Source of the DNA: Candidatus Subteraquimicrobium carltonvillense
Lineage (GTDB): Bacteria; Actinomycetota; Aquicultoria; Subteraquimicrobiales; Subteraquimicrobiaceae
DNA length: 41,962 bases
Direction of reading: 5' to 3'
Assembly (NCBI GenBank): GCA_002339355.1
Contig: DDKQ01000086.1
Coordinates: 1-41,962, forward strand
How positions within the stretch are numbered: the first letter of the stretch is position 1; every line of letters starts with the position of its first letter. Positions 1,413-32,554 of this stretch are shown piece by piece. The position numbers and the translations under genes are program-made. A model generated the notes under the pieces. That model searched no databases and was not told the origin of the DNA. It saw nothing but the letters and a program-made list of their open reading frames with translations.

Positions 1413-2186
1413 ATGAAGATAAGCTATTTCAAATTGGCAACTTTTCAGCAATGTCCCCTCAAATACCGCTTTCTCTACGTGGATTGGTTGGGAAAGCAGT
1501 ACAGAAAACCTCGTCCCCCTATGAGTATGGGGGAAAGTATTCACCGTGCCCTTCGCGATTTTTTCAGGATTTCAAATCCAGAGGACAGAAGCCTTGAAAA
1601 GTTTCATTATTTATTGCGCAAGAATTGGATTAGAGAGGGCTTCGGCAATCGAGATGAGGAAAGGATTTGGGGAAAGAAGGCTTTGAAAATTTTGGAGCGG
1701 TTTTATCGCTCCAACGATTGTAGAGTCCAGCCCCTATTTACAGAACTTAATTTCGAAGTCAAGATAGAGGATCTAATCTTCGTGGGAGTTGTAGATCGAA
1801 TTGATAGGCTGGATAATGGAATCTTCCAGGTAATCGAGTATAAGACCGGCGCTAAGTCCATGACCTCGGAGGAAGCCGATGGAGATATCCAACTGACCTT
1901 TTATAATTTAGCCATTAGAGAAAAATATCACTTTGAACCAATTAAACTGACCATCTATTTTCTCCAGTCGAACAAGCAAATCGATACCTTCAGGACGGAT
2001 GAGCAACTTCAAGAGGGTCTAAGAGAGATTGCAAATATCGTGGGGAAAATCAAGGGTACTCGGGAGTTTGAGCCTCAAAGGAATCAATTTTGTCCCTGGT
2101 GCGATTTCTTGGAGATATGTCCCATCAGAGGTGAAATACGGATACCCATAAAGGAAACGGCGTATCCCGAAGATATTCCATTTTAA
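1413..2186 (+). CDS. PD-(D/E)XK nuclease, Cas4/AddB-type with Fe-S cysteines
   Basis: ATG 1413 with TAGGAG 6 nt upstream. Motifs: N-terminal Cys (FQQCPLKY), DRID...EYK (D..ExK), QLTFYNLA (QxxxY), and C-terminal CPWCDFLEIC cysteine triad. Confidence 0.7.
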   Translation: MKISYFKLATFQQCPLKYRFLYVDWLGKQYRKPRPPMSMGESIHRALRDFFRISNPEDRSLEKFHYLLRKNWIREGFGNRDEERIWGKKALKILERFYRSNDCRVQPLFTELNFEVKIEDLIFVGVVDRIDRLDNGIFQVIEYKTGAKSMTSEEADGDIQLTFYNLAIREKYHFEPIKLTIYFLQSNKQIDTFRTDEQLQEGLREIANIVGKIKGTREFEPQRNQFCPWCDFLEICPIRGEIRIPIKETAYPEDIPF

Positions 2187-5233: not shown

Positions 5234-6344
5234 AGAATCTATTTCCTTTGCTCGTGAGTTTTCTGGGTTCAATTATTATCCTTCTTTCCTTACCCCTTAC
5301 ACAACCAATTTGATGGCCCTTTATATCGTGTTTCTTTATAATCTCCAAAGCAGATGCCAGATCATCTGGTGCCATAACCAGGCAAAAACCGATGCCCATG
5401 TTATAAACCTTGTACATTTCTTCATCGGTTACGTTGCCCAGCTTTTTAATCAAAGAAAATATCGGTGGCGGTTCAGGTAGGTAATTTATTACATATCCTA
5501 CCTCCGAGACCACCCTAGTTAAATTGAGAAAGCCATCCCCCGTGATATGTATCAAGGCTCTCACGTTTAAATCCGAATTTAGAATTTCCATGACCTCGGG
5601 GACATAAATCCTGGTGGGTTCCAGAAGCTCCTCGCCAATGGTCCTTCCTAACTCATCGAAGTACTTGTTGACATCAAAACCCATCTTGTCAAAGAAAATT
5701 TGACGTGCCAGCGTTAAACCATTGCTGTGGATGCCGCTGCTTTCCAAACCCAGCACAATATCCCCCTCTTGGATATCCTGCCCCGTGATCACCTTATCGA
5801 GAGGGACAATGCCAACGCATGTACCCACCAAATCAAAGCCATAGGTTTCCCTCTTGCCCTTAATTAATTCCTTTAGTTGGGCTATCTCCCCGGCGGGAAT
5901 GGTTATCCTCGCCATTTGAGCCCCTCGATAAAGTCCTTTTCCAATCCCTTCCAGTAGATCAGGATGTGGTTCCTGAACTGCTATGTAATCCACCATGGAA
6001 ATCGGCTCTGCTCCTACGCAAAGGATGTCATTGACATTCATGGCTATGCAGTCAATTCCAATGGTGTCGTATTTGCCCATCATTTGTGCGATGAGAACCT
6101 TCGTCCCCACTCCATCGGTTGAAATGGCGATTCCCATATTCCATCCGATATCGATGACATTGGCAAAGTAACCCATCTTAAGTTTCGCCACTCCAACTTC
6201 CTTCCTCAATTGAAAGGTCTTCTTGATCCACTTCACTAGCTCTTCCAGGGCAACCTCCTCTCTGGCAGAATCGACGCCGGCCCGCGCATAGGTAAAGTGT
6301 TCAGATTTTCCTTTTCTTTTCGGTCTCTTACCCTTTAAATCCAT
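5223..6344 (-). CDS. purM: phosphoribosylformylglycinamidine cyclo-ligase (AIR synthase)
   Basis: YARAGVD..., STDGVGTKVLIAQMMGKYDTIGIDCIAMNVNDILCVGAEP and the SSGIHSNG block are typical PurM motifs. Confidence 0.75.
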   Translation of the reverse strand: MDLKGKRPKRKGKSEHFTYARAGVDSAREEVALEELVKWIKKTFQLRKEVGVAKLKMGYFANVIDIGWNMGIAISTDGVGTKVLIAQMMGKYDTIGIDCIAMNVNDILCVGAEPISMVDYIAVQEPHPDLLEGIGKGLYRGAQMARITIPAGEIAQLKELIKGKRETYGFDLVGTCVGIVPLDKVITGQDIQEGDIVLGLESSGIHSNGLTLARQIFFDKMGFDVNKYFDELGRTIGEELLEPTRIYVPEVMEILNSDLNVRALIHITGDGFLNLTRVVSEVGYVINYLPEPPPIFSLIKKLGNVTDEEMYKVYNMGIGFCLVMAPDDLASALEIIKKHDIKGHQIGCVRGKERRIIIEPRKLTSKGNRFYGY

Positions 6345-6406
6345 CGAGTGCCTCCAAATCTGCGCTTATAAGTTAGCATATCAAGGGAGTGAAATAAATA
6401 TGCATT

Positions 6407-6435
6407 TGCAAGGGGCATTGAACTTTGTGTATAAT
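6407..6435 (+). promoter_or_regulatory. sigma-70 type promoter of the thiamine operon
   Basis: TTGCAA (6407-6412), 17-nt spacer, TGTGTATAAT with TATAAT at 6430-6435 (extended -10), about 15 nt upstream of the riboswitch. Confidence 0.7.
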
Positions 6436-6449
6436 CATGGAAACTTCAC

Positions 6450-6546
6450 AGATTTAGGGGAGCTCGTGTTACGGGCTGAGAGGTTCGATATCATTGAACG
6501 ACCCTTTGAACCTGCTCTGGGTAATGCCAGCGGAGGGATAATATCT
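6450..6546 (+). promoter_or_regulatory. TPP (THI-box) riboswitch aptamer
   Basis: GGGGAGC...GGCTGAGAGG...ACCCTTTGAACCTGCTCTGGGTAATGCCAGCGGAGGGA is the canonical THI element. It lies directly upstream of thi4-thiE-thiC-thiL-thiD. Confidence 0.93.
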
Positions 6547-11468: not shown

Positions 11469-11490
11469 TTCTACACTCCCAATATAATGA

Positions 11491-11696
11491 TTACACAGAT
11501 TTTATTAGATTACACAGATCAAAAACAAATCTTTTAATCTGGCAGCTCTTATTGCCGAAATTAACCAACTTTAACCCTTCTTTGTTAAAAGCTAATTTAA
11601 GTGCATTATGATATATCTTCTCATTGAATCCTGGCCCTAACTCAGAGTGAACTCGATAACAACAGGCTATAATTCGTTCGGTAAGAAATCAGACAT
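11491..11696 (-). pseudogene. GxxExxY-family (PD-(D/E)XK-like) gene relic, frameshifted and internally deleted
   Basis: My minus-strand translation gives MSDFLPNEL* from the ATG at 11696. Shifting one frame from 11688 gives FLTERIIACCYRVHSELGPGFNEKIYHNALKLAFNKEGLK|LVNFGNKSCQIKRFVFDLCNLIKSV*. It contains the GFNEKIY (GxxExxY) motif and the family C-terminus (LINFG..IKR), but the central half is missing and there is no in-frame start. Confidence 0.65.
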
Positions 11697-20087: not shown

Positions 20088-20105
20088 GGTAAATAAAACT
20101 CGAAA

Positions 20106-20375
20106 TATTAACGAGTTAGGTTGACACTTTATACATTCGAGGGAGGGGTAAGTGCTTAAGAAAACCGTGTCGGAGCCTCATCTATGAAAACCTTTGAACA
20201 TGTTCACAGTTTTGTAGCGAGGCGAGACCCGAGCGGCCCCGAAGGACTCGTTTCACTCGCCAACGGGGGTAAACGGCCGTAACTGCGCCTGCCCCGTAAA
20301 CGCGACAGCGTTCTTCGGGGTGTTTTCGGAGCACTTCACCCCGACCAGGTGTTAACCCATCTTGTTAATAATACA
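20106..20375 (+). repeat. inverted-repeat-bounded structured element, copy 1 (candidate ncRNA or MITE-like element)
   Basis: 5' arm 20106-20166 and 3' arm 20329-20375 recur at 31239-31299 and 31370-31417. The arms pair with each other in three helices. The 162-nt core is GC-rich. Confidence 0.8.
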
Positions 20376-20389
20376 AATTAACTCAAAAG

Positions 20390-21334
20390 ATGGGGGAGAA
20401 TTCGATTCGGAAAATTGCCTTTATCTTTCCCGGACAAGGATCTCAATATGTTGGGATGGGAAGGGCTTTAGTCGCTTTTCCAAAAGTGGCCCAGTTCTTC
20501 AAAGAGGCAGAGAAAATTCTCGGAAGAGATCTTTCCCTCCTATGCTTTCATGGTCCAAGACAAAAATTAGTAGAAACCGTAAATACGCAACCCGCTGTAT
20601 TCATCATTAATTTCATTTGCTGGTTTCTCTTGAACAAAGAGGGTATTAAACCCGATATCGTTGCGGGCCATAGCCTCGGCGAGTACTCCGCGCTGGTAGC
20701 CGCGGGGGTATTGGATTTTTCGGAGGCCCTAAAGCTCGTTGCCAAACGAGCTGAACTTATGGAAGAAGCTTCGAGAGAATTCCCGGGAAAGATGCTTGCG
20801 GTATTGGGCATGGATTCGACATTCGCCGCAGATATCGTGGGCTCTCTGAGAAGCAATGGGATTATTAACATCGCCAATTATAACTGCCCCGGTCAAGTAG
20901 TAATCTCAGGAGAAAAACAGATGGTCGAACGGGCAGCCAAGTTGTTTAAAGAAGCTGGAGCCAAACGCGTTGTGGAACTAGAGGTAGGCGGGGGATTTCA
21001 CTCCCCCTTAATGAAGAAAGCGGAAAGACGATTCGCTAACCACCTGGATGCTATTTCCTTTAAAGATGCTAAAATACCAGTGGTCTCTAATTACACAGCA
21101 AGACTTTCCACAGAGGGTGAAGAGTTGAAAGATGCATTGCGCAAACAAATTACCGGTTCGGTACTCTGGAAGCAATCCATTCTGCAAATGCTCAAAGTGG
21201 GAATCGATGTCTTCATCGAAGTAGGACCAGGCAAAGTTCTTTCCGGACTAGTTAAAAGGACTGCTCCTTCGGTCAAGATTTTAAATGTTGAAGACGCTGA
21301 ATCTTTTCGTCAAACCATACAAGCTCTATTCTAA
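20390..21334 (+). CDS. fabD: malonyl-CoA:ACP transacylase
   Basis: FIFPGQGSQYVGMG, GHSLGEYSALVAAG, GGFHSPLM. Confidence 0.93.
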   Translation: MGENSIRKIAFIFPGQGSQYVGMGRALVAFPKVAQFFKEAEKILGRDLSLLCFHGPRQKLVETVNTQPAVFIINFICWFLLNKEGIKPDIVAGHSLGEYSALVAAGVLDFSEALKLVAKRAELMEEASREFPGKMLAVLGMDSTFAADIVGSLRSNGIINIANYNCPGQVVISGEKQMVERAAKLFKEAGAKRVVELEVGGGFHSPLMKKAERRFANHLDAISFKDAKIPVVSNYTARLSTEGEELKDALRKQITGSVLWKQSILQMLKVGIDVFIEVGPGKVLSGLVKRTAPSVKILNVEDAESFRQTIQALF

Positions 21335-21506
21335 AACTTAGGCTAGACATAAAATCGCCTGAGGTAGACGAAGCTCTTTTTTGCTACAAAAACGGCTTTA
21401 TCTCAAGTTTAAATTCTAATTTCAAAATACTAAGCACTAAACAATATCAAATGTCTAAAATTCAAAAATCAAAACGAGATGAAATGCGATTAGAAGAGCG
21501 TTTAGG

Positions 21507-21600
21507 ATTTCAAAAATTTTGATTTTGAATTTGCTTAGGATTTAGGATTTCGAATTTAGGATTTGAACCAACTTTCTGGAATTATATCCAGGGTATAATC
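21507..21600 (+). repeat. intergenic repeat family, copy A (upstream of fabG)
   Basis: Shares an identical 24-mer TTAGGATTTCGAATTTAGGATTTG (21542-21565) with 24980-25003. The flanks TTTCAAAAATTT..GATTT and TTTCTGGAATTAT..CCAGG.TATA are also similar. Confidence 0.8.
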
Positions 21601-21625
21601 TAAAACATAAATTTGGGGGTGTGAA

Positions 21626-22666: not shown

Positions 22667-22715
22667 CTGCGAATCTACCTAAACAGCAAAATTGTTTTTA
22701 TTGGGGGAATACCTT

Positions 22716-23684
22716 GTGGAGTTGCCCAAATTGAAAATCGGAGAATGGCAGACTTCACTGCCAATTATACAGGGAGGCATGGCAGTTAGAATCTCCCTTG
22801 CCCCTTTGGCTGCAGCTGTGGCTAATGAGGGGGGAGTTGGAATTATTGCTGGTTCGGGGTTACACCCTCCTGAACTCGCTGAACATATTCGTCGTGCTCG
22901 AAAACTGACCGATGGAATTATCGGAGTAAATATCATGGTGGCGCTGGGGGAATTTGCTGAACTTGTTCGGACTGCCATTCGAGAAAAAGTCGATTTAATC
23001 ATATCAGGAGCGGGTTTTTCCCGTGATGCTTTTAAATGGTGCCACAATGCCAACATACCCTTCGTCCCCGTTGTATCCTCGGAAAGGGTTGCTAAATTGG
23101 CCGAAAGATTCGGTGCAGCCACAATAGTGGTGGAGGGTAAAGAGGCGGGTGGTCATTTGGGAACCGATCAGCCTCTTTTATCCATACTGCCCAGAATCAT
23201 AAAGGCAGTTAAAATCCCCGTTATAGCCGCAGGGGGGATTTTTAGAGGAAGTGATATAGCAAAGGTTCTATCCATGGGTGCCAGTGGAGTTCAGATGGGC
23301 ACTCGATTCGCAGCTAGTGAGGAGAGCAACGCCGCAACTGCATGGAAGGAAACCTACGTTAGGGCCAAACCAGAAGATGTCGTAATCATCGAAAGCCCGG
23401 TGGGCATGCCCGGGAGAGCTCTTCTAACTCCCTTCACTAAAGCTCTTTTCGCTGGGAAAGTCCCCAAACCGGTCGACTATAAAAGATGTGTGAAATGTCT
23501 TAAACATTGCAAAAAGAACTATTGCATCATCGAAGCCTTAGTGAGAGCACAGCGGGGTGATATGAAGAGGGGTTTGGTCTTCTGCGGCGAGCGAGTGGGA
23601 GAAGTAAAGGAGATTTTACCCGTCGGGGAAATTATAAAAAATCTAATCGAGGAGTTTAAAGAGGCGACCTTGAGGGTGGTGTAA
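22716..23684 (+). CDS. nitronate monooxygenase-family protein (second FabK-like paralog) with C-terminal Cys cluster
   Basis: LPIIQGGMAV, GVGIIAG, GVNIMV, VEGKEAGGHLG, IPVIAAGGI, GVQMGTRF. Extra CVKCLKHCKKNYC motif. GTG 22716 is preferred (GGGGGA upstream); start uncertain. Confidence 0.75.
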   Translation: MELPKLKIGEWQTSLPIIQGGMAVRISLAPLAAAVANEGGVGIIAGSGLHPPELAEHIRRARKLTDGIIGVNIMVALGEFAELVRTAIREKVDLIISGAGFSRDAFKWCHNANIPFVPVVSSERVAKLAERFGAATIVVEGKEAGGHLGTDQPLLSILPRIIKAVKIPVIAAGGIFRGSDIAKVLSMGASGVQMGTRFAASEESNAATAWKETYVRAKPEDVVIIESPVGMPGRALLTPFTKALFAGKVPKPVDYKRCVKCLKHCKKNYCIIEALVRAQRGDMKRGLVFCGERVGEVKEILPVGEIIKNLIEEFKEATLRVV

Positions 23685-24936: not shown

Positions 24937-25052
24937 CTTTCAAAAATTTGGATTTAAGAATTTGGATTTGTTTAGAATATTAGGATTTCGAATTTAGGAT
25001 TTGGACTTAAAGGTTGCCAAACTATTTTCTGAAATTATGCCAGGATATATAA
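24937..25052 (+). repeat. intergenic repeat family, copy B (upstream of rnc)
   Basis: See copy A. Identical 24-mer at 24980-25003, then TTTTCTGAAATTATGCCAGGATATATAAA. Confidence 0.8.
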
Positions 25053-29804: not shown

Positions 29805-30738
29805 ACTGAGCGACTCATCAAAGGGTTGGCTTAAAAGGTTAAAAACCGGTTTAAGAAGGAGTCGGGAAAAACTAACCGACCAACTTTTCGATATTTTTTT
29901 GAGAACAACGATACCCGGCGAAAAGGTATGGGATGATATCGAAGAAGTTTTGATTCAAGCGGATGTCGGCATCAAGGCCACCCTTAAAATAGTCCAGGAC
30001 CTTCGAGAACGCGTTGAGATCGAAAGGATCCAAGATCCTCTCCAAATCCTTGGACTACTTAAAGAAGAACTCATCCGCATTCTTGGTGACTCCAAAGAGC
30101 CCCTTCTCCTGGCAAATAAACTCAATGTCTTAATAATCGTTGGGGTCAATGGTGTGGGCAAGACAACTGCTATAGCCAAAATCGCTCATCGAGCTATGAA
30201 AGGAGGTTTAAAAGTCCTCCTCGCCGCCGCGGATACTTTTAGAGCAGCCGCCATTGAGCAACTGGAAATATGGGGGGAAAGAGTTAGAGCTCCCGTTCTA
30301 AAACATCAGAGAGGATCCGACCCAGCAGCTGTGGTCTACGATTCCATCCACGCCTCGCAGGCCAGGGGAGTCAACGTCCTTTTAATCGATACTGCAGGTA
30401 GATTGCATACCTATGTGAATTTAATGGAAGAACTGAAGAAGATCAAGCGCATAGCGGCGAGAGAGGCACCCAAGTCCAACATAAAAACTTTACTGGTCAT
30501 AGACGCTACAACCGGTCAGAATGGAATCGCTCAAGCCAAATTGTTCGATGAAGCTCTCAAAATCGATGGAATAATCCTCACCAAATTGGACGGCACGGCT
30601 AAGGGTGGCATAGTGGTCACCATCGCTGATGAGCTTAGAATACCCATAAATCTCATAGGAGTGGGAGAAAGGCTCGAAGATTTGTGTGAATTTAATGCCA
30701 ACGAGTTCGTTGAAGCCCTTTTATCCAGGGACATTTAG
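29782..30738 (+). CDS. ftsY: signal recognition particle receptor FtsY
   Basis: GVNGVGKTTAIAKIA, DTAGR, TKLDGTAKGG. Overlaps the smc end. Confidence 0.92.
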   Translation: MKKRGELKLSDSSKGWLKRLKTGLRRSREKLTDQLFDIFLRTTIPGEKVWDDIEEVLIQADVGIKATLKIVQDLRERVEIERIQDPLQILGLLKEELIRILGDSKEPLLLANKLNVLIIVGVNGVGKTTAIAKIAHRAMKGGLKVLLAAADTFRAAAIEQLEIWGERVRAPVLKHQRGSDPAAVVYDSIHASQARGVNVLLIDTAGRLHTYVNLMEELKKIKRIAAREAPKSNIKTLLVIDATTGQNGIAQAKLFDEALKIDGIILTKLDGTAKGGIVVTIADELRIPINLIGVGERLEDLCEFNANEFVEALLSRDI

Positions 30739-31109
30739 ACCTTGCCTGCCGGACGGGTAGGCGGGAAATCTTTCTCAAGCACTCTAATGATTTTGCTCTC
30801 AATTTTCTTTTGGACCTCGATGGGCAGATTTGCGAGCCTATACAAAGTCATTATCAAATTGGGTTTTAACATCAGATATCGGGAAACTTTTCGAACCCGA
30901 TATTCCATGAAATAATCGGGTGAGATTCCAAAACCAGCGGCGATTCTTCTGATAACCTCGTCTGAGGGTGCAGGCATCCTGCCTCTTTTTAATTTACTCA
31001 AATAGGTATAATCAACTTTGCACCTGCGCGCAAACTTCCTCAGGCTGACTCCGCACTGCTTAAATAACTCCGTTAGTGCTTCGTGAAAAAGTTCGTGAGA
31101 ATACTTCAT
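30735..31109 (-). CDS. XRE-like helix-turn-helix protein
   Basis: ATG 31109 after AAGGGAGAAAGA. GVSLRKFARRCKVDYTYLSKLKRGRMPAPSDEVIRRIAAGFGISPDYF is an HTH_XRE-type pattern. Confidence 0.6.
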   Translation of the reverse strand: MKYSHELFHEALTELFKQCGVSLRKFARRCKVDYTYLSKLKRGRMPAPSDEVIRRIAAGFGISPDYFMEYRVRKVSRYLMLKPNLIMTLYRLANLPIEVQKKIESKIIRVLEKDFPPTRPAGKV

Positions 31110-31238
31110 TCTTTCTCCCTTGATTTTGAAATTAAATTCCAACTTTATTATCGTTTGCAATCGATTAATACTTTATACTGGATAAAAGATTGTAAGGATA
31201 ATAATTTCCAGAATCCACTTATAAAGGTTACCTTGAAC

Positions 31239-31417
31239 TATTAACGATTTAGGTTGACACTTTTGACATTTAAGGGAGGGGTAAGTGCTTAAGAAAACCT
31301 GCCCGTACGGGGCGGCGGCCGGAGTATTACTTTGGTGAAACTAAAACCAGGCCGACCGCGTGGGCTCACGAGCACTTCACCCCGACCATAGTGTTAACCC
31401 ATCTTGTTAATAATACA
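31239..31417 (+). repeat. inverted-repeat-bounded structured element, copy 2 (candidate ncRNA or MITE-like element)
   Basis: Same arms as 20106-20375, with a 70-nt unrelated GC-rich core. Almost the whole 179 nt can be drawn as one rod (details in findings). Confidence 0.8.
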
Positions 31418-31495
31418 GGTTTACCTACTAGAGATAGGAAGGTGAGTTTACCTTGGCGGATAAGAAATGGGGAGAGAAAATGAGAATCTATGGGG

Positions 31496-32554
31496 TCATT
31501 GGTTCATGCACTCTGTAACAAAAAAATGACCTCTAGCTCGAATCTTTGAGATTTTGGACCAGAGGATATAAACGTCCCCGTTTGGTCTCACCAGACCGGA
31601 TTCCAAAATAGTGTCTTTGGGTGAGGAAGAAAGTGGGATAAGAAGATTTTTACCCTTGCGAGTAATTTTCGCCAAGTAAATAGTCTTGGATTTTGAAGCA
31701 ACCGATTTTGTTCCGGCAAAGTATAGGCTACGCTCCCTGTCCATCCCAAGGCAGACACCGGTAAGTCCCAGGGACTTCCAGGATTCTGAGAGTATAGTTT
31801 TTTGAGTGAAAATGTCCACCATTTTCAATGATTCTTTCTTACCATCCAAAAAAATGAGGTAAACATCATTCCCATGAACAACCCAGGCTATAGGGTATTC
31901 CTCCTTGGAAAGGGAGAGGGTTTTTACCTTTTTAAGCTCCCCTTTCCTGTTGAGAATTTGTACCGTTAAAGAAGATTGAGATATAGATGAGGTGATTATG
32001 CTCCCATTTTTGTATGCTAAATTATTGTGAGAAAAATATAATATTGGATTTCCGATCACCCCCAGGGCTTGTTCTTCAGTTAAAGGATAGATTCTCCCCA
32101 GGAATTTTCCTTGTCTGTCAAACCTCTGAATTTCTATACTGGCAGAGAGGGGCTTATTCGATTCAGAAACCAGCGTCTTGCTCACCCCCATATAAATATT
32201 TTCCCGCTCATCGACACAACATCCCCAGATGCGATAGGCGGAATATTTTACCTCATTCGAATCGGTCTCTGGTGCGATGGCGAGTTTCTTTCGAGGAACT
32301 ATCTTCAAAAGTAGTTTCCCTTTGGGATTGAATTTTCTCACCGCGAAATCTCCTTCGGCAACGTATATATTCCCGGCATTATCCAGTATCAAAAAGGGTG
32401 TTCCCCGAGCTTCTAGAGAATTTAAGGTATAAGATACCGAGGTAATAATCTTTGGTTTACCATACTTGCTGGATATTGATTTTCCTCCACAACCCATTAA
32501 ACTAAAGATCAACGGGAGGATTATACTCACAACTATTTTCCGAGATATTCTCAC
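31496..32554 (-). CDS. hypothetical lipoprotein, beta-rich (propeller-like) fold
   Basis: Lipobox LMGC after a signal peptide. Repetitive beta-strand-like segments (G.IY., NG.IY). No family recognised. Confidence 0.55.
   Translation of the reverse strand: MRISRKIVVSIILPLIFSLMGCGGKSISSKYGKPKIITSVSYTLNSLEARGTPFLILDNAGNIYVAEGDFAVRKFNPKGKLLLKIVPRKKLAIAPETDSNEVKYSAYRIWGCCVDERENIYMGVSKTLVSESNKPLSASIEIQRFDRQGKFLGRIYPLTEEQALGVIGNPILYFSHNNLAYKNGSIITSSISQSSLTVQILNRKGELKKVKTLSLSKEEYPIAWVVHGNDVYLIFLDGKKESLKMVDIFTQKTILSESWKSLGLTGVCLGMDRERSLYFAGTKSVASKSKTIYLAKITRKGKNLLIPLSSSPKDTILESGLVRPNGDVYILWSKISKIRARGHFFVTECMNQ

Follow-up and report, generated by a model that had tools for sequence, protein, structure and literature searches.

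The window, that is, the whole stretch of 41,962 nucleotides analysed here, carries two minus-strand genes between ftsY and ffh: an Xre-type HTH gene (30735-31109) and an ORF of 352 amino acids (31496-32554) in which no Pfam domain was matched. Between these two lies a palindromic element, here called copy 2, which is positioned 3' of the 352-aa ORF and 5' of the HTH gene and is antisense to both, as a sequence-only reading of the same DNA had stated. In the window lineage and in a relative, JBFMAG, the HTH gene and the 352-aa ORF (30735-32554) are interposed between ftsY and ffh on the opposite strand. In the distantly related Yes46-11 (L098, 6001-8357), ftsY is followed directly by ffh without either gene, and the pair looks like an inserted accessory block. 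A second element of the same family, copy 1 (20102-20375, plus strand, 274 nt), carries modules A and C and lies between fabK and fabD.

Copy 2 as a whole occupies 31235-31417 on the plus strand (183 nt), its ends being taken from the family alignment and from a fresh insertion with an 8-bp target duplication. It had earlier been delimited as 31239-31417; the right end, at ATACA, stands, and the left end moves 4 nt outwards to 31235. From left to right the element consists of GAAC, a 5' arm, a remnant of module A, module B, a 3' arm and ATACA, with GAAC TATTAAC and TTAATA ATACA as its end sequences. The 5' terminal inverted repeat (TATTAACGATTTAGGTTGACAC, 31239-31260, plus strand) forms the 5' strand of the terminal helix P1 and pairs with 31391-31412, the 22 positions comprising 18 Watson-Crick pairs, two G:T pairs and two conserved mismatches. 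There follow the 5' side of an asymmetric internal loop (17 nt, 31261-31277), conserved in the family by fold and alignment, and the helix P2, whose 5' strand (GGGGTAAGTGCT, 31278-31289) pairs, with a bulged C, with a 3' strand placed by the fold and the family alignment (AGCACTTCACCCC, 31371-31383). A short remnant, TGCCCGTACGGG (31300-31311), stands in the position of module A when aligned to the A+B copies L005 and L007 of Yes46-11. It precedes the module B hairpin (GCGGCGGCCGG ... CCAGGCCGACCGC, 31312-31359), in which GCGGCGGCCGG (31312-31322) pairs with 31347-31359 beneath an apical hairpin at 31331-31345. The 3' terminal inverted repeat with the terminal ATACA (GTGTTAACCCATCTTGTTAATAATACA, 31391-31417, plus strand) closes the element exactly at ATACA; it is near-invariant in seven aligned copies, variation being confined to three positions among the first five bases. 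The flanks GGTTACCTT (31226-31234) and GGTTTACCT (31418-31426) are alike but out of register, and are thus only ambiguously readable as a possible decayed target duplication.

Folded as plus-strand RNA in ViennaRNA, the rod at 31239-31417 has an MFE of -72.7 kcal/mol, compared with -47.1 +/- 4.4 for dinucleotide-preserving shuffles (n=200; z = -5.78), none of which was as stable. The MFE structure includes P1, the 17-nt asymmetric loop, P2 with its bulged C and the core helix GCGGCGGCCGG/CCaGGCCGaCCGC, and every helix of copy 2 that had been listed by eye was recovered in its place. The minus strand also forms a rod, a less stable one (-63.0 kcal/mol, z -4.2). Copy 1 likewise folds into a rod (-111.7 kcal/mol, z -7.0). 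The rod fold arises because the ends of the element are inverted repeats and each internal module is a palindrome.

Folds of this strength raise the prospect that both copies are independently transcribed genes for structured small RNAs, whether 6S-like, Y-RNA-like or of a new class, with the arms acting as a protein-binding rod and the apex providing specificity. The fold of both window copies, the greater stability of the plus strand in five of seven copies, several compensatory changes and the conservation of modules across lineages whose FtsY proteins are 62% identical are what this proposal has in its favor. Set against them are the lack of an Rfam match, of conserved upstream sequence and of a convincing promoter or terminator, together with target duplications, insertion polymorphism, deletion or truncation of the locus in strains of the same species, and P1 substitutions that create wobble pairs equally often on either strand (in L007 and in the copies of JASEJB and JASEGB). 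We therefore consider small RNA genes highly unlikely.

The searches behind these negatives were as follows. Rfam 15 at gathering thresholds, applied to the whole window, gave nothing near either copy. The only match was a TPP riboswitch (RF00059; 6446-6555, plus strand, 71.6 bits, E 2.6e-12), which lies upstream of the cluster of thiamine-biosynthesis genes that the syntenic locus L106 shows. At E<=10, copy 1, copy 2 and L007 returned only noise (drz-agam-1 at E 0.32, lysM-TM7, RsaA, snoRNAs) with nothing recurring between copies, and ARAGORN found no tRNA or tmRNA. Consensus scans detected no convincing promoter or terminator within or abutting the element, nor any above shuffled expectation; no IHF site was evident, and the alignment held no conserved sequence upstream of the copies. 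A TTGACA in the 5' arm was rejected as an internal sigma-70 promoter, since no -10 box could be read at any spacing and the base there varies (G/T/A) between copies.

Several known classes could be set aside individually. The suggested resemblance to 6S RNA did not hold, there being no Rfam match at E<=10, no convincing promoter or terminator and erosion of the locus in near-identical strains of one species. That to bacterial Y RNA (YrlA/Yrn), a class marked by a tRNA-like module and by linkage to an rsr (Ro) gene, fared no better: no Rfam match, a negative ARAGORN result, no convincing promoter or terminator, and ftsY, the HTH gene, the ORF without Pfam match and ffh as neighbours. SRP RNA, considered on account of the location between ftsY and ffh, was dismissed, as Rfam gave no SRP match and the element is multi-copy. 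Integron attC sites have R''/R' core sites of the form RYYYAAC / GTTRRRY, measure 57-141 bp and close each gene cassette of an array on its 3' side; here TATTAAC/GTTAATA is off consensus, lengths extend to 300 nt and copies lie between core genes such as fabK and fabD. A metagenome scan with the 3' terminal 20-mer produced three chance matches without arms, and neither viral-contig scans with five arm patterns nor distant BLAST against plasmids produced anything. The sequence is unrelated to anything in Rfam or in the viral contigs and plasmids searched.

Copy 1 (20106-20375) and copy 2 are 90% identical over the 68-nt 5' arm, 91% over a 34-nt 3' terminal match and 91% over a 52-nt 3' arm. No third copy was present in the window, whether sought with a 3-mismatch pattern or with arm profiles in nhmmer. 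When one genome per species was scanned for exact patterns, six copies turned up in Yes46-11 (JASEEZ01), and altogether 13 full, truncated or remnant loci were located in four related uncultured "Actinomycetota" MAGs: two in the window, six in Yes46-11, three in JASEJB and two in JASEGB. Copy number per genome is modest within the data covered (~52 kb for the window genome, and stretches of 8-21 kb from the others). All copies are intergenic, and full copies span 89-300 nt; in Yes46-11, L001, L005, L006 and L007 are complete, L004 is a 3' arm only and L101 a 5' arm only.

Alignment of the copies revealed constant arms enclosing a variable apex. The 5' arm reads (G)GAC TATTAACGAGTTAGGTTKACAC TTTAGACATTCGAGG GAGGGGTAAGTGC and the 3' arm GAGCACTTCACCCCGACCATAGTGTYAACCCATCTTGTTAATA ATACA, and the imperfect 22-nt terminal inverted repeat is conserved in all full copies. 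The apex is drawn from three hairpin modules: A (GTGTCGGAGCC...GAGGCGAGACCCGAGC), B (GGCGGCCGGAGTAT...ACTAAAA.CCAGGCCGACCGC) and C (GGCCCCGAAGGACTCGTTTCACTCGCC...CTTCGGGGT). Copy 1 and L001 combine A with C, L005 and L007 combine A with B, and copy 2 carries B after the 12-nt remnant in the A position; L006 (89 nt) has no apex, its arms joining at a GGAG microhomology. The core of copy 2, earlier described as unique to it, is accordingly module B, shared with L005 and L007 of a distant lineage. No ORF conserved between copies was seen, and a small ORF noted by eye in copy 1 was rejected as a gene, its frame not being kept in L001. L001 contains, at ~1830-1860 (minus strand) between the 5' arm and module A, an extra 26 nt abundant in CTCGG repeats, GACCTCGGCTGAGCTCGGTCGAAGCC, which looks like a local duplication. 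L005 (~6100-6450) is embedded in a short tandem array whose 14-nt unit, GGAATTCGTTATTA, occurs with variants.

With respect to their neighbours, copy 1 is sense, copy 2 is antisense, and all five Yes46-11 copies whose flanks were examined (L001 and L004-L007) are antisense. This bias is not significant, and both window copies run in the same direction as most genes around them. No transposase was seen adjoining any copy, nor was a transposase gene with matching ends found in ~52 kb of the window genome and the 8-21 kb pieces of the others. L101 was considered as an autonomous element and rejected, its neighbours being HD-domain, HTH and CAAX-protease genes with no transposase.

The window itself matches GCA_022735775.1 and JGI sample 3300032204, and FtsY and FabD searches and contig look-ups supplied four relatives. 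At the DNA level, the window shares 93-98% identity with JASEGB01 (L099) and JASEJB01 (L100), most aligned segments being at 96-98%, and the mutual identity of these two strains is 99.6%. A sister species, JBFMAG01 (L097), stands at 91-93%. Yes46-11 (L098, 'Actinomycetota bacterium Yes46-11') is far more distant, its FtsY being only 62% identical to that of the window. A locus search based on Ffh reached no relative above 61% identity and was uninformative on empty sites, and look-ups with window proteins 1293-2186 and L19 brought nothing new. Between the window copies and most of those in Yes46-11, the arms are nevertheless 87-92% identical (in L005 the 5' arm falls to 80-83%), a level close to that seen when copy 1 and copy 2 are compared with each other. 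Arm identity this high alongside 62% FtsY identity fits a horizontally shared mobile element and not an orthologous gene.

JASEJB carries a fresh insertion between recG and rsmD, which is bounded by GGAC...ATACA and flanked by a perfect 8-bp duplication, GCTAATAT. On the recG side, found on a contig located through the cluster of the window RecG, the junction reads CCACA GCTAATAT|GGACTATTAAC..., the contig end being ...TTCCACAGCTAATAT|GGACTATTAACAAGTCAAGTTGACAC...; on the rsmD side it reads ...TTAATAATACA|GCTAATAT AACGAAC...rsmD, and the start of contig JASEJB010000002.1, upstream of rsmD, is ...GTGTTAACCTAACTCGTTAATAATACA|GCTAATATAACGAACTG. Both JASEGB and the window possess the uninterrupted empty site, TTCCACA GCTAATAT AACGAACTG. 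The element ends can be fixed as GGAC...ATACA because this fresh insertion displays both junctions and the 8-bp duplication against the empty sites. The same boundaries reveal an 8/8 duplication at L006 (GTTTATGT/GTTTATGT) and a 7/8 duplication at L005 (CGTTATTA/CGTTATTC), the chance of an 8/8 match at fixed positions being ~1.5e-5 per site. No clean duplication flanks either window copy, L001 or L007, which agrees with greater age (arms 10% diverged) or later recombination.

These junctions also dispose of the proposed TA target duplication: the flanking TA lies within the inverted repeat, and the fresh insertion duplicates 8 bp. A MITE of IS630/Tc1-mariner type is rejected on the same grounds, the TA beside TTAAC being inside the element. 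An 8-bp duplication together with the termini GGAC...ATACA (TGTAT when the complementary strand is read) is compatible with several IS families.

The recG|rsmD element itself is a multi-copy relative of the MITE that breaks the assembly. Both JASEJB contigs (JASEJB010000018.1 and JASEJB010000002.1) break 53-55 nt into it, at L106 8407-8459 (left, ...CACTTTCTGACACTTTCGGTTTTCATTGTT) and L100 1-55 (right, ACATGTCCTGCGTTTGTCAAAGGGCAAAG...), and its end segments are GGACTATTAACAAGTCAAG... and ...CCTAACTCGTTAATAATACA. Its arms are related to but distinct from those of the other copies, with the same termini and a different interior, and it is possibly a candidate autonomous element, or another MITE subfamily. 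No relatives of these variant ends were found in viral contigs. A lone 27-nt match to the variant end, TGTATTGTTAACGAGTTAGGTTAACAC, occurs at L102 1653-1679 in the AT-rich, unrelated Actinomycetes MAG RS_16_36 (JAGMBY01) with no partner end within 4 kb, and may be a remnant of a related IS.

Comparison of orthologous sites shows that the element changes once in place. At the copy 2 site, between the HTH gene and the 352-aa ORF, JASEJB has the same flanks and the same site-specific 5'-arm variants around an A+C core (267 nt). JASEGB retains there a 42-nt stump, its first 35 nt having been joined to TAATACA when the sequence between two TTAA repeats was deleted. The element is missing from this site in JBFMAG, and since ~47 and 21 nt of flanking sequence are missing as well, the empty site is not a clean excision or insertion footprint. 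At the copy 1 site, between fabK and fabD, the element is 5'-truncated in both JASEGB and JASEJB, the 5' arm, module A and the first part of module C being gone. Given these strain differences at both sites, the rod is dispensable at both window loci within one species, and its core is replaceable. The A+C core of JASEJB at site 2 is not a recent copy of that at site 1, as it is only 89.5% identical to copy 1; the core of the window at site 2 may instead have been swapped with a B-type copy elsewhere in the genome via the conserved arms.

Other indels between the same genomes were apparent. An intergenic block of ~280 nt between fabD and fabG (window 21329-21606) is absent from JASEGB and JASEJB; a 96% match to its repeat TTAGGATTTCGAATTTAGGATTTGRAC lies at 24980-25006, upstream of rnc, and is likewise missing from the relatives, so that this may be a second small repeat family. 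A ~212-nt intergenic stretch (window 11485-11696), which opens with the direct repeat GATTACACAGAT...GATTACACAGAT, has ~12 nt in its place in JASEGB. Inside a second NMO-like ORF (22692-23684), 254 nt of the window (23114-23366) are missing from JASEGB and JASEJB, either a gene deletion in these strains or an insertion in the window.

Taken together, our findings indicate that the rod is very probably one copy of a new, modular, non-coding MITE family, an ordinary kind of element. Prokaryotic MITEs are defined by terminal inverted repeats, by direct repeats that become less distinct as copies age, by an intergenic position and by transcripts that form stable stem-loops (PMC10969869). We favor this assignment because terminal inverted repeats, an 8-bp target duplication, small size, the lack of a conserved ORF, dispersed copies, presence/absence between close relatives, erosion and distant hosts all match that definition. 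The sequence-only reading had preferred insertion or mobility to a fixed cis-regulatory role, a view upheld by insertion polymorphism, dispersed copies and locus variation between strains. Its own proposal for recognizing a MITE, by empty sites and many copies, gave a positive outcome, with 13 loci and an empty recG|rsmD site in JASEGB and the window. Copy 2 is an old, diverged member of this family. Any effect that it may have on a neighbouring mRNA would be a by-product, and both such an effect and any action of the element at the RNA level are putative.

It is conceivable that a MITE, once resident, has been co-opted, so that the duplex formed by read-through in neighbouring mRNAs serves as an RNase III or stability element, which would explain the structure-preserving substitutions. 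Copy 1 lies within the fab operon, between fabK and fabD and on the same strand, with an rnc gene in the same cluster; compensatory changes are present; and the Correia and ERIC elements offer a precedent (PMC10969869). At these very sites, however, strains of the same species manage with one arm missing or with almost the entire element gone, and orientation is mixed, copy 1 being sense and copy 2 and five Yes46-11 copies (L001, L004-L007) antisense. Co-option is unlikely in our estimation.

The substitutions merit closer consideration. RNAalifold on the three A+C copies gave 91 pairs, with two compensatory double changes (both in module C), ~10 one-sided changes that keep pairing and nine broken pairs. 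The B-type copies show two compensatory changes in the module A stem (GUCCCGC/GCGGGAC vs GCCUCGC/GCGAGGC) and, by eye, a paired insertion at the apex of module B (GGU/ACC to GGCU/AGCC). These changes exceed what neutral decay would be expected to produce, although in a sample that is tiny and in which modules may be non-homologous swaps, and they hint at selection on the hairpin, or at its homogenisation, over and above the needs of transposase binding; DNA-level homogenisation of palindromes can also give rise to paired changes. Strand asymmetry is weak, the plus strand folding better in five of seven copies, and the P1 substitutions in L007 and the JASEJB/JASEGB copies yield wobble pairs on the minus strand, not the plus. 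It is tempting to speculate that modules A, B and C are interchangeable cargo, selected for their fold and carried by a mobile scaffold of arms. The modules are ~90% conserved between lineages with FtsY 62% identical, at least four pairs have changed in a compensatory manner and one insertion is paired, and one orthologous site holds B in one strain and A+C in another. We judge this improbable; were it true, the element would serve to disperse functional RNA or ssDNA hairpins and to swap them from locus to locus and across distant subsurface lineages, and would be more than a transposon remnant in decay.

Long hairpin potential, G:T pairs on one strand and the antisense orientation of all five Yes46-11 copies examined (L001, L004-L007) would also suit an element moved as single-stranded DNA by a Y1/HUH transposase, such as a REPIN/RAYT or an IS200/IS605-derived PATE. 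REP and REPIN sequences bear a GTAG or CGTC tag adjoining the palindrome (PMC3733652). Here the ends, GGAC... and ...ATACA, carry neither tag; 8-bp duplications are present, of which REPIN/RAYT and IS200/IS605-type systems make none; and the two ends pair with each other in place of forming separate subterminal hairpins. RAYT-mobilised REP/REPIN elements are rejected on this basis, and transposition by any Y1/HUH enzyme seems extremely improbable.

For the MITE family, the following model can be envisaged. Its members have fixed termini, 5'-GGAC/GAAC ... ATACA-3', and imperfect terminal inverted repeats of ~22 nt, inside which a further pair of arm segments is complementary; the apex either is empty or holds one or two of the three hairpin modules (A+C, A+B, deleted-A+B). 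A transposase provided in trans would presumably bind the inverted repeats, and insertion at an 8-bp staggered cut would generate the 8-bp target duplication. After insertion, copies decay through internal deletions between short direct repeats and loss of one arm, and copies may trade cores with one another, for which recombination or gene conversion via the conserved arms would be the simplest route.

The main value of this result lies in correct annotation, since a strong intergenic rod of 180-270 nt without an Rfam match is easily mistaken for a new structured RNA. Furthermore, the family marks very recent genome change, in the form of an insertion difference between strains that are 99.6% identical, and it provides evidence for exchange of mobile DNA between distantly related, uncultured lineages labelled Actinomycetota. 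The modular apex, with its structure-preserving substitutions, is a modest addition to the modular bacterial repeats exemplified by ERIC and BOX.

Like the present family, the ERIC/IRU elements of Enterobacteriaceae and Vibrionaceae are imperfect palindromes, intergenic and often within transcribed regions, with copy sets that differ between strains. In both, size varies through internal deletion and through additional blocks set at constant positions inside the element, details that, for ERIC, Hulton 1991 and Wilson & Sharp 2006 are said to have described. The two have no sequence similarity, and our family differs in its hosts, uncultured Actinomycetota-labelled MAGs, in its clear 8-bp target duplication and in a demonstrably recent insertion. 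ERIC elements have themselves been classed with MITEs (PMC10969869).

The BOX elements of Streptococcus pneumoniae resemble this family in having constant end modules and a variable middle. Their modular layout is A-B-C, and they vary by tandem repetition of boxB, whereas the family described here combines alternative, non-homologous hairpins A, B and C; the sequences are unrelated. Common to both are stable predicted secondary structure, an intergenic position and the lack of an encoded transposase (PMC10969869).

The Correia elements (CREE) of Neisseria are likewise small, bounded by terminal inverted repeats, represented by internal-deletion variants and present or absent according to strain. 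Correia elements duplicate TA, as the sequence-only reading had proposed for the element studied here; the present family duplicates 8 bp instead and has no evident promoter or IHF site. RNA duplexes formed by Correia elements are cut by RNase III (PMC10969869). The IS-derived MITEs MITEAba12, QMITE, Chunjie and Nezha possess terminal inverted repeats and target duplications that fade with age, are small, lack an ORF and are mobilised in trans (PMC10969869), and our family is like them in its inverted repeats, age-fading duplications, small size and lack of an ORF. In behavior, its closest counterparts are ERIC, a palindrome whose variants carry internal insertions and deletions, and the modular repeat BOX.
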